Shown here piece by piece: positions 27,646 through 29,481 of a DNA stretch of 32,000 nucleotides. The translations under genes and the position numbers were made by a program. The stretch covers positions 120,001 to 152,000 of the forward strand of contig OY970071.1 of NCBI GenBank assembly GCA_963705375.1. The letters are read 5' to 3'. The notes under the pieces were generated by a model. The model did not search any database, was not told the origin of the DNA, and saw only the letters and a list, made by a program, of their open reading frames with translations. Position 1 is the first letter of the stretch; each line of letters starts with the position of its first letter. Source of the stretch: Candidatus Saccharimonadota bacterium (lineage in GTDB: Archaea; Micrarchaeota; Micrarchaeia; Micrarchaeales; Micrarchaeaceae).

Positions 27646-29481
27646 ATGCCTACAAAAGACAACGCGCAGAATGACACTGAGAGAACCTTCACTGCTACTG
27701 AAGCCAAAAAATTCATTGAAGAGAGGGTCCGGAAGTCGTCCACAGATAAGATAGATACTGTCGTGCAGATTCTGAAGAAGGACGGAATACGCGACGCTTC
27801 AGTGGCAGCAACGAATCTCAAACTAACAAGGGGGGACGTTGAGTCCTTGATACCTGAGATAATAGCGAGAGTTGATGCCTGTATCAAAGGCGGTTGGATA
27901 GATTTCGCCACACAGGCGGCATCTGCTTTCAAGCTGACACGTGATGAGGTAACGCCAAAGGTCATAGAGGGGATTGCTGTACTCGTCAAGAGGGATTCAT
28001 CAGGAGACATATTCTATGCCTCAAAAGCATTCTTGGATTTCAAGCTTACAGTCGAAGAAGTGAAACCGGTCGTGATGGAAGGTGTCTCTGAGCTTGTGGA
28101 GAAAGGGAAGATATGTGCTGCTTCAGAAGTGGTCGAGGCATTCAAGCTGACAAGCGAGGACGTGGTGTCCTTCAAGCAGAGGGTGACTGAGAAACTTGTG
28201 GAGACTATCGAAAGGGGTTGGATACGTGATGCCTCAAAGGCAGTCTCGGCTTTCGGACTCACAAGTGACGAAGTAAGGCCAAAGGCGATGGAGGGGTTCG
28301 CGGCGCTTGTGAAGAAAGGATGGATACGTGATGCTTCAGAAACTGCATCTACATTCAAGTTGACAAACGAAGAGGTAAAATCGGATGTGATCGAGGGGAT
28401 CGCGGAGCTTATGAAGGAAGGGAACATGCTTAGCACTTCTGAAGCGATCTCGGCTTTCGAACTTACATATGCGGACGTGGAACAATTCAAGCCGGAAGCC
28501 CTGTTAGGGGTCGCAGCGCTTGTGGGGAAAGGATGGATGGACAACGCATCAAAAGCAATCTCAGATTTCAATCTGGATGAAGAGGAAGCGAAACCGAAGG
28601 TGCTGGAAGGCATCTCTGTGCTTGTGAATGAAGGGAAGGCGTACGTCGCCTCAGAAGCAGCTACTACTTTCAAGCTGACAAGCAAGGACCTGGAGCCCTT
28701 CAAACAAGAAGTGCTAGATGGAATCGCGACTCTTGTGAAGGCAGGGGACACTGCACATGCATCAAAAGCAGCCAGCGCTTTCAAGTTGACAGGTAAGAAA
28801 GTAAAGCCGAAGGTTATGGAGGCAGTCCTATCGCTTGTGGAGGTAGGAAATGCTCGCACTGCTCTGGAAGCTGCCACAGCCTTCAAAATAACAAGCGAGG
28901 AAATAAAGCCAAAGGCGACGGATAGGCTTGCAGAGCTTGTAAGGGAAGGAGATATATGCTCTGCATTGAGAGTGTTTTCTGCCTTCAGGTTGACAAGTGC
29001 AGATACTGCGTCTCTCAAATCAGAGGCGCTGGATGGGATTGCCGCGCTTGTGAAGGAAAGAGAGATGGATGCCGCATTAAGGGCATCCTCTGCTTTCGGA
29101 CTCACAAGTGACGAAGTAAGGCCAAAGGCGATGGAGGGGTTCGCGGCGCTTGTGAATGGGGGACATATAGACGCAGCATTAACTGCAGCATCTGATTTCA
29201 AGTTGACAAGTGAGGACATCCGTTCCTTCAAGACCGAGGCGCTGGATGGGATTGCTGTGCTTGTGAAAGATGGGGCGATTGACGTAGCCTTACTGGCAGT
29301 ATGCGCTTTCGGACTGACAAGTGATGACCTGGAATCCTTTAGGCCTCAGGCTCTAGAGGGGATTGCAGCACTTGTGGAAAGGGGAGCTACGGACGATGCC
29401 TCAAAAGCAGTATGGGCTTTCAAAATAACTGAGAGAGAACTCTCTGCAATACTGGAAGGCGCAAAACTTCTCCGCAAATAA
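27646..29481 (+). CDS. family R: protein of about 15 tandem 34/37-residue helical repeats
   Basis: Repeat consensus is AS.A.SAFKLT.EEVKPKV.EGIA.LVK.G.... The GTG at 27637 is possible, but ATG 27646 lies 34 nt after the TATAAGTATCT core (27602-27612). Confidence 0.85.
   Translation: MPTKDNAQNDTERTFTATEAKKFIEERVRKSSTDKIDTVVQILKKDGIRDASVAATNLKLTRGDVESLIPEIIARVDACIKGGWIDFATQAASAFKLTRDEVTPKVIEGIAVLVKRDSSGDIFYASKAFLDFKLTVEEVKPVVMEGVSELVEKGKICAASEVVEAFKLTSEDVVSFKQRVTEKLVETIERGWIRDASKAVSAFGLTSDEVRPKAMEGFAALVKKGWIRDASETASTFKLTNEEVKSDVIEGIAELMKEGNMLSTSEAISAFELTYADVEQFKPEALLGVAALVGKGWMDNASKAISDFNLDEEEAKPKVLEGISVLVNEGKAYVASEAATTFKLTSKDLEPFKQEVLDGIATLVKAGDTAHASKAASAFKLTGKKVKPKVMEAVLSLVEVGNARTALEAATAFKITSEEIKPKATDRLAELVREGDICSALRVFSAFRLTSADTASLKSEALDGIAALVKEREMDAALRASSAFGLTSDEVRPKAMEGFAALVNGGHIDAALTAASDFKLTSEDIRSFKTEALDGIAVLVKDGAIDVALLAVCAFGLTSDDLESFRPQALEGIAALVERGATDDASKAVWAFKITERELSAILEGAKLLRK

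Follow-up and report, generated by a model that had tools for sequence, protein, structure and literature searches.

A rare archaeal family of 34/37-residue repeat proteins with a predicted alpha-solenoid fold

What is a protein made almost entirely of short repeats for, and does the patch that changes from one unit to the next recognise anything? The question is raised by a gene at 27646..29481 (+ strand) in a 32,000-nucleotide stretch of contig OY970071.1 (positions 120,001 to 152,000), referred to here as the window, which encodes a 611-residue protein that we call A. Lineage-specific proteins of genome-reduced symbiotic archaea, among which A appears to belong, are almost entirely uncharacterised. 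The initial annotation, made by a model from the sequence, described A as about 15 tandem two-helix units with a conserved scaffold and one hypervariable loop each, and likened this design to that of modular recognition proteins of the TALE, Pumilio, ankyrin or HEAT type. The structural part of that interpretation is supported by the analysis given here, while the idea of a recognition loop is weakly supported; the family to which A belongs is clearly delimited, regular to an unusual degree and amenable to experiment.

Repeat architecture and predicted fold

The open reading frame (ORF) of A is uninterrupted and ends in a stop codon after 611 residues, with an in-frame GTG at 27637 as an alternative start. 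It divides into an N-terminal cap that is helical and resembles degenerate repeats (residues 1-50, 27646..27795), an array of 15 full units of which seven are 34 aa and eight are 37 aa long (residues 51-584, 27796..29397), and a truncated unit 16 that forms the C-terminal cap (residues 585-611, 29398..29478; ASKAVWAFKITERELSAILEGAKLLRK), all on the + strand. The anchor motif F-[KGNRE]-[LI]-[TD] is found 16 times. Residue identity within A is 0.367 at a lag of 71, 0.298 at 105, 0.276 at 37 and 0.234 at 34, compared to a shuffle maximum over all lags of 0.114 +/- 0.006 that never exceeded 0.139 in 500 shuffles. The periodicity is far beyond chance, the estimate of about 15 tandem units of 34 or 37 residues is borne out (15 full units and a partial sixteenth), and every loop string quoted in the initial annotation is present in A. 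Its two subtypes are not interleaved in strict alternation, as the spacings between successive anchors show (37,37,34,37,34,34,37,34,37,34,34,37,34,37,37). The 37-residue subtype itself holds for seven of the eight longer units, which share a 3-aa insert (xSF/xSL/xQF/xPF) after 'LTxEDV', but not for unit 2, which reaches 37 aa through another insert, DSS, in the loop before the Gly.

Aligned with MAFFT, the units yield the consensus ASxAxSAFKLTSxxVKPxxxEGxAxLVxxGxIxx, in which columns A1, F8, L10, T11 and the loop Gly are conserved in at least 90% of units; the Gly is present in 14 of the 15 units and the hydrophobic residue of the loop (I/M) is also conserved. To speak of a conserved scaffold nevertheless overstates the case, in that mean pairwise identity between units is only about 39-47% and many exposed helix positions vary. 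The DNA copies of the units are 60-77% identical, and for this reason Tandem Repeats Finder reported no repeat in the DNA of A; a DNA-level satellite or CRISPR-like array was rejected on these two grounds. The protein is acidic (isoelectric point 5.0, net charge -18) and has no signal peptide, transmembrane segment or N-terminal hydrophobic segment.

AlphaFold2 models were computed from the single sequence without an alignment. Full-length A has a predicted local distance difference test score (pLDDT) of 84.4, while a five-unit fragment (residues 196-371) reaches a pLDDT of 90.5 and a predicted template modelling score (pTM) of 0.79. In the models helices of 10 aa and of 17-20 aa strictly alternate, joined by loops of 3-4 residues, and there are no strands. 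Each modelled unit runs from a 10-residue helix (x-x-A-S-x-A-x-S-A-F) through a 4-residue turn (K-L-T-x) into the helix of 17-20 residues, and closes with a 3-residue G-x loop. The 3-aa insert extends the long helix by about one turn, although in the last units the model breaks the helix at the insert. The predicted fold class is clear, an alpha-solenoid of two-helix units, and agrees with the expectation of the initial annotation.

Placed on this plan, the conserved residues would all be structural. The unit would consist of the short helix (xxAS.A.SAF), a capped turn K-L-T with the Thr as helix N-cap, the long helix (S-E-E-V-K-P-K-V-M-E-G-I-A-A-L-V-K-E) and a closing Gly turn, with A1, A4, F8, L10, V15, V/A22, I26, L29, V30, G36 and I38 building the hydrophobic core and the turns. 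Besides the core Ala, Phe, Leu, Val and Ile residues and the Thr N-cap with its acidic capping residue, structural roles would fall to the Pro that starts the main helix segment and to the Gly residues at the helix crossing and in the turn.

Foldseek comparison of the full model with the PDB returned only generic helical repeats at template modelling (TM) scores of at most 0.25, among them designed repeats, TPR proteins (SKI3, CTR9, NatA), HEAT proteins (karyopherins, CAP-G) and PPR proteins; for the five-unit fragment the best match was no better than E=0.04 with a TM score of 0.36. Judged from the model, the inter-repeat geometry of A matches no solved family. Among the predicted viral structures of BFVD, giant-virus ankyrin proteins came top (E=3.7e-5 at a TM score of 0.36, with none above 0.38).

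At the sequence level, a Pfam scan of A found no repeat family at E<=0.1, and NCBIfam, PHROGs and PADLOC gave nothing meaningful. Two weak matches, to Pfam TFIIF_beta (E=3.5e-4, 21.1 bits against a cut-off of 23) and to phrog_16239 'HTH DNA binding protein' (E=5e-5), are summed scores in which no single stretch passes. They arise because the turn of A fits the classical helix-turn-helix (HTH) sequence pattern h-[GK]-h-[ST]-x-x-[DE]-h, with a 'recognition' helix that starts acidic, and they are not in themselves evidence of DNA binding. With phmmer against all PDB sequences A retrieved one designed repeat protein only (8erw, E=0.006), while the unit profile found nothing below E=0.07 in a library that holds TALE, TPR, PPR, PUF, ankyrin and HEAT structures, and no TALE chain at E<=10. 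Unit and double-unit profiles were also compared by hhalign with consensus sequences of TALE, CTPR3, cPPR, ankyrin, alphaRep-HEAT and dArm repeats, which were entered by hand (those of Sel1, PUF and mTERF being approximations only), and gave probabilities of at most 4%; the best match was to the TALE 'LTxEQV' helix cap, at 4% over 12 columns of that consensus. No similarity to mTERF or PUF repeats was found by Pfam, PDB profile search or hhalign with the approximate sequences, and for PPR and PUF together there was no Pfam match, a negative PDB profile search and an hhalign probability of at most 2.4%, the PUF sequence being approximate. The profile comparison thus yields no confident match to HEAT, TPR, TALE-like or any other known family compared, and the earlier statement that A has no sequence homology to TALE, Pumilio, ankyrin, HEAT or TPR proteins stands in Pfam, PDB sequence and hhalign searches alike.

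What A shares with known repeat proteins is a matter of design. The best Foldseek matches are de novo designed helical repeats (DHRs and related designs; 8erw, 7rdr, 8ga7, 8g9j, 5cwn), which like A consist of regular two-helix units with very short loops, Ala/Leu-rich cores and charged surfaces. Being artificial, the designs are not related to A by evolution; their superhelical geometry differs from that of A (TM scores of 0.06-0.25), and A mixes 34- and 37-aa units. Ankyrin repeats and DARPins (33 aa) have a similar period and the same order of loop, short helix, tight turn and longer helix, and the most variable residues of A fall where an ankyrin repeat would have its binding face, in the loop that leads into the short helix and on the opening turn of that helix. 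However, A has no beta-hairpin finger and no TPLH or GADVN motif, and its second helix is much longer; Pfam Ank does not match, hhalign gives 0.1-0.2%, and no ankyrin protein is among the top 50 PDB Foldseek matches.

TALE repeats (33-35 aa; Xanthomonas TALEs, Burkholderia Bat and marine TALE-likes) resemble A in the 34-aa period, the two unequal helices, the 'LT' helix cap that delimits the units and the presence of a variable loop in each unit. In a TALE unit the loop joins the short helix to the long one, whereas in A the variable loop follows the long helix. TALE units are near-identical (>90%), with variation confined to two residues, the repeat-variable diresidue 12/13, a pattern not found among the units of A with their identity of about 39-47%; A is also acidic. 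The TPR signature is W4-L7-G8-Y11-A20-F24-A27-P32 on two helices of similar length. TPR (34 aa) and PPR (35 aa) repeats have the period of A, belong to the same helical-hairpin solenoid class and give weak Foldseek matches (SKI3, CTR9, NatA and alpha-SNAP; THA8, cPPR and LRPPRC; TM <=0.35), but their helices are roughly equal in length, their signature residues are absent from A, there is no Pfam match, and hhalign stays below 3% (0.1-0.4% for TPR). HEAT/ARM repeats, finally, are alpha-solenoids with a conserved Pro near the helix start and small Gly/Ala residues at helix crossings, as in A, and match weakly in Foldseek (karyopherins, condensin CAP-G and MMS19; TM <=0.24). The units of A are shorter (34-37 compared to 37-47 aa), their conserved positions differ, Pfam finds no match, and hhalign is below 1%.

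Paralogues and relatives

Searches with a hidden Markov model (HMM) of the unit and with BLASTP confirm that A, B and C make three family genes in the window, as first described. Protein B (271 aa; 19498..20313, - strand) has about 5 more degenerate units, matches A at E=6e-15 in BLASTP and the unit HMM at E=4.5e-21, and is identical to database protein P0005. Protein C (162 aa; 21008..21496, - strand) has 2-3 units and was found by unit HMM and BLASTP (E=5.9e-11). The unit HMM scores A at 682 bits over 15 units, B at 70 bits and C at 38 bits. Signal peptides and transmembrane segments are absent from B and C, as they are from A. Both genes are recorded on a contig of 1,209,602 bp, and no exact-match database record was found for C, or for A with either start codon. 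Directly upstream of B and overlapping it, a 105-aa ORF (20258..20575, - strand) contains one weak unit-like motif, APIFDLTRVDAKKLFDELV (unit HMM E=0.0034), and is perhaps a short member of the family or what is left of one.

A HMMER scan of 1.84 billion representative proteins with the unit profile gave 21 matches at E<=1e-3, of which one is B itself (P0005) and about 16 are genuine. These relatives are unnamed, repeat-only proteins of 86-485 aa in clusters of 1-8 sequences, scoring 38-90 bits. They carry the motif AxxAxxAFxLTxxEV(xxF)KPxVxxGIxxLVxxGxIxx in both its 34- and 37-type forms, with a unit spacing that is more irregular than in A (30-50 aa), and no Pfam domain besides the repeats was found in the 10 family members scanned. 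Defined by at least two units matching the motif and by the lack of any other domain, the family comprises A, B, C, P0002-4, P0006-8, P0010-14, P0016-18 and P0020. P0001, P0015, P0019 and P0021 were discarded as spurious matches to a short motif repeated many times (AAYKLTEADV; FGLTAEDxR in an ankyrin-like protein). P0009 was rejected as well and seems, by eye, related to the C-terminus of the window gene at 23755-24777. That gene (- strand) encodes a 340-aa protein ending in a 'AELFHLQKDDVLSYLINEGML' segment, which to the eye resembles both 'AFGITRDEVVQELVNEGML' of P0009 and the F-x-L-T turn of the family; the segment motif may be common to a wider set of Micrarchaeota proteins.

Two relatives, P0007 (334 aa, about 5-7 units) and P0017 (140 aa, 2 units), look from their sequences like orthologue-type counterparts of A with far fewer units. 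Both share with A the motif ERTFTxxEAKKFIEERV, in shorter form ERTFT..A.KFIEERV, in the N-terminal cap and F.ITE.ELSA in the C-terminal cap. An orthologue of C with 56-57% identity lies on CAISDH010000037.1 (L002), an 8.6-kb contig titled 'uncultured Candidatus Micrarchaeota archaeon'. The L002 genes at 1199-2203, 4016-4684, 5696-6178 and 7868-8452 are orthologues of C and of the 340-aa protein (47% identity) with two further family genes interleaved. L002 is partly syntenic with positions 19500-24800 of the window, which suggests a conserved island of lineage-specific genes, and since it carries the C orthologue plus two members, at least two related genomes contain the family in several clustered copies.

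The archaeal context includes a TFB-like single-cyclin gene (26760..27263) and a PolD-small-subunit-like gene (10044..11285) in the window, and an archaeal-type AdoMet synthase adjoining P0007. The family appears to be very rare and restricted to an archaeal lineage (Micrarchaeota/DPANN-type). K-mer-seeded homology searches with A or with a 19-row double-unit alignment found no relatives, and the same search with P0007 found only P0007 itself; searches of GTDB genomes and IMG/VR based on A gave no related loci, tblastn against phage and plasmid collections gave no relatives, and a metagenome search with P0017 retrieved only one 1.1-kb contig. A literature search found no publication on the family or on the sample accessions. 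The possibilities that A is a prophage or viral gene (PHROGs and IMG/VR negative) or part of a defence system (PADLOC negative) were rejected.

Variation between units and possible roles

The most variable columns of the A unit are 40 (3.01 bits), 37 (2.66 bits), 32 (2.61 bits), 3 (2.47 bits) and 39 (2.42 bits), all of which are found near the Gly turn and on the opening turn of the short helix. Mean BLOSUM62 scores are negative only at columns 37, 39 and 40, which follow the Gly and where substitutions are on average non-conservative. The seven-column loop singled out in the initial annotation has a mean entropy of 2.10 bits compared to 1.41 for the remaining columns, and is the most variable circular 7-column window in A. 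The claim that variation is concentrated in one loop is therefore right to the extent that no patch within A varies more than the loop together with the beginning of the short helix, but the contrast is moderate.

Between units, the proportion of synonymous differences (pS) is 0.62, synonymous divergence (dS) is about 1.3, and the ratio of nonsynonymous to synonymous divergence (dN/dS) is about 0.3 for the core and for the other exposed columns (Nei-Gojobori). The units are therefore old and the scaffold is under purifying selection. At the five most variable columns pS is 0.87 and the proportion of nonsynonymous differences (pN) is 0.58; because these sites are saturated, diversifying selection on them can be neither demonstrated nor excluded. 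A 65-nt tract in unit 5 (28249..28313, + strand) is 100% identical to its copy in unit 13 (29092..29156, + strand), while the flanking DNA is only about 50-60% identical between copies. The tract encodes FGLTSDEVRPKAMEGFAALV and ends directly before the variable loop, and is most likely the product of gene conversion within A, homogenising a scaffold helix and halting at the loop. The array would have grown through old duplications of units and double units (213 nt), and purifying selection would now preserve its scaffold, with gene conversion acting now and then.

Our preferred reading, on which we are evenly divided, is that A acts as a cytoplasmic protein-interaction scaffold or adaptor for lineage-specific partners, within an undescribed alpha-solenoid family. 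A protein-protein scaffold is favoured because the conserved residues are structural, the variable edge is ankyrin-like, and A is acidic, with neither a membrane segment nor an enzymatic or nucleic-acid-binding domain. Ankyrin and DARPin binders make their contacts through residues of the loop and of the opening turn of the short helix, and the placement of the variable residues of A is closer to this protein-binding layout than to that of TALEs. The exposed residues at columns 32, 37, 39, 40 and 3, which differ in every unit, would align as a continuous ridge along the stacked solenoid, and this ridge would most likely be the protein-binding surface.

Several observations weigh against this reading. 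Firstly, the ridge geometry is deduced from helix periodicity and not measured on coordinates, and the structure comes from single-sequence prediction, in which regular helical repeats model confidently even with a wrong inter-repeat geometry. Secondly, the exposed helix columns 12, 13, 21, 28 and 5 also reach 2.0-2.2 bits, and across homologue units (n=23) the loop columns, at 3.1-3.4 bits, do not rise above other exposed columns, so that the per-position entropy proposed as a check in the initial annotation does not single out the loop there. With synonymous sites between units close to saturation, the extra variability of the loop in A, which is moderate, could be mere relaxed constraint. 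Thirdly, P0003 has an N-terminal transmembrane-like or signal-like segment, and family members therefore need not all be cytoplasmic. Finally, the neighbours of P0007 (a Cas4-like nuclease, Nramp and a pyrophosphatase) have none in common with those of A, so there is no conserved operon and no guilt by association.

One rival is that A is a solenoid serving only as structure or filler and recognising nothing in particular, in which the loop varies as the least constrained part and array length drifts by duplication and loss. We consider it unlikely, yet a serious null. It would accommodate the saturated columns at which positive selection cannot be demonstrated, the homologue loops that vary no more than other exposed positions, the degenerate state of B and C, and the insertion sequence (IS) elements and disrupted gene in the region. 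It accounts poorly for an intact ORF of 611 codons whose old units keep a dN/dS of about 0.3, and for N- and C-terminal caps that are conserved with distant relatives; moreover, a functionless 1.8-kb gene is unlikely to be kept in a small contig or genome of 1.2 Mb.

That an episymbiotic DPANN archaeon would use this expanded, fast-evolving family as host-directed or cell-contact factors, binding proteins of the host (e.g. Thermoplasmatales) at the contact site or after transfer, is an attractive idea but harder still to credit. The parallel is with bacterial symbionts and their 'eukaryote-like' effectors built of ankyrin, TPR and Sel1 repeats. Such a role might explain why the family occurs only in a host-dependent lineage and in several copies (three genes in 10 kb here and three in 8.6 kb on L002), why repeat number varies so strongly (15 units for A, about 5-7 for P0007 and 2 for P0017), why P0003 carries an N-terminal membrane anchor or signal-like segment, and why the genes lie among other lineage-specific paralogue families without known domains. 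Yet the argument is entirely by analogy, A, B and C lack signal peptides and transmembrane segments, and among the neighbouring genes none was identified that belongs to a secretion or contact apparatus.

A more ambitious version of the binding idea, to which we give somewhat less credence again, would make these proteins DPANN-specific 'programmable' binders. Each unit would contribute a patch of about five residues (32, 37, 39, 40 and 3) to the continuous ridge, and repeat number and patches would be tuned by duplication and loop-sparing gene conversion to host or partner macromolecules, giving a natural archaeal counterpart of DARPins and TALEs on a solenoid geometry not in the PDB.

A modular nucleic-acid reader, in which the variable loop of each unit would contact one base or base pair as in TALE, PPR and PUF proteins, is highly improbable: the 34-37 aa period within the range of those families, the unequal helices with a variable patch in each unit, the HTH-like turn with its sub-threshold TFIIF_beta and phrog_16239 matches, and the predominance of Lys/Arg at columns 9 and 19 are set against the net negative charge, the S-[DE]-[DE] that follows the turn, variation above 1.9 bits at more than 10 columns and not at 1-2 code positions among units of limited identity, variable positions that draw on no small recurrent residue alphabet, the absence of TALE, PPR, PUF or mTERF similarity, and the irregular 30-50 aa spacing in relatives, which is incompatible with a one-unit-per-nucleotide register. 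The TALE- or Pumilio-type recognition code suggested at first accordingly finds no support in the charge of A, its residue usage or the spacing in its relatives.

If the scaffold reading holds, A would represent a new natural alpha-solenoid repeat family that has neither a model in Pfam or NCBIfam nor a relative of solved structure and is confined, with about 16 detectable relatives in 1.84 billion representative proteins, to genome-reduced symbiotic archaea. As a candidate interaction scaffold that should be expressible and usable in co-culture pull-downs, A would offer a handle on the protein 'dark matter' of Micrarchaeota, and its regular 34/37-aa scaffold could interest protein engineers. 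By itself A opens no long-standing question.

Surroundings of the gene

Putative expression signals of A, read from the sequence by eye, occupy 27600..27639 (+ strand). They comprise a TATA-like element, CATATAAGTA, at 27600-27609 as a putative promoter element, and GGCGGTG at 27633-27639, six nt 5' of the ATG. The coding strand of A is purine-rich, matching other + strand genes of the window. A long antisense ORF (28014..29231, - strand) is a by-product of the repeat and was rejected as a real gene, with strand composition, homologues and fold prediction all favouring the + strand.

Directly upstream of A and divergent from it lies the TFB-like gene (26760-27263, - strand), whose 167-aa product has just one cyclin domain, of the TFIIB/TFB type; its matches to NCBIfam PRK00423 (E=1.7e-5) and Pfam TFIIB (E=1.3e-3) are both below cut-offs. 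On the other side of A, a zinc-type alcohol dehydrogenase gene (29648-31413, - strand) is apparently split by an IS200/IS605-type Y1 transposase gene (29953-30495, + strand). The N-terminal part lies at 30484-31413 (ADH_N and ADH_zinc_N 1-80) and the C-terminal part at 29648-29908 (ADH_zinc_N 87-128), with tnpA between them, and no exact-match database record was found for the dehydrogenase fragment. This transposase gene is one of three in the 32 kb, the others being at 5102-6013 and 7262-7744 (both - strand); one is DDE_Tnp_1 (IS4/IS5-like) and two are IS200-like Y1. The three genes point to active or recent IS activity on a contig or genome roughly 1.2 Mb in size.

A 34-nt direct repeat, GGTTTTGTAACACCTCCAAGATCCTG..., is present in two copies (25867-25900 and 25984-26017) that are 94% identical and spaced 117 nt apart, about 160 nt downstream of tRNA-Arg(CCG) at 25633-25708, and a second repeat pair is found at 25940/26048. 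The 34-nt repeats may have arisen by local duplication, represent an att-like remnant or play a regulatory part. In positions 1-25500 of the window almost all ORFs are without a Pfam, NCBIfam, PHROG or PADLOC match. By eye, apparent lineage-specific paralogue families can be made out there: an HExxH family at 6225-7283, 8130-9935 and 11462-12334, and pairs formed by 3008-3469 with 14750-15193 and by 16447-17244 with 21682-22914.

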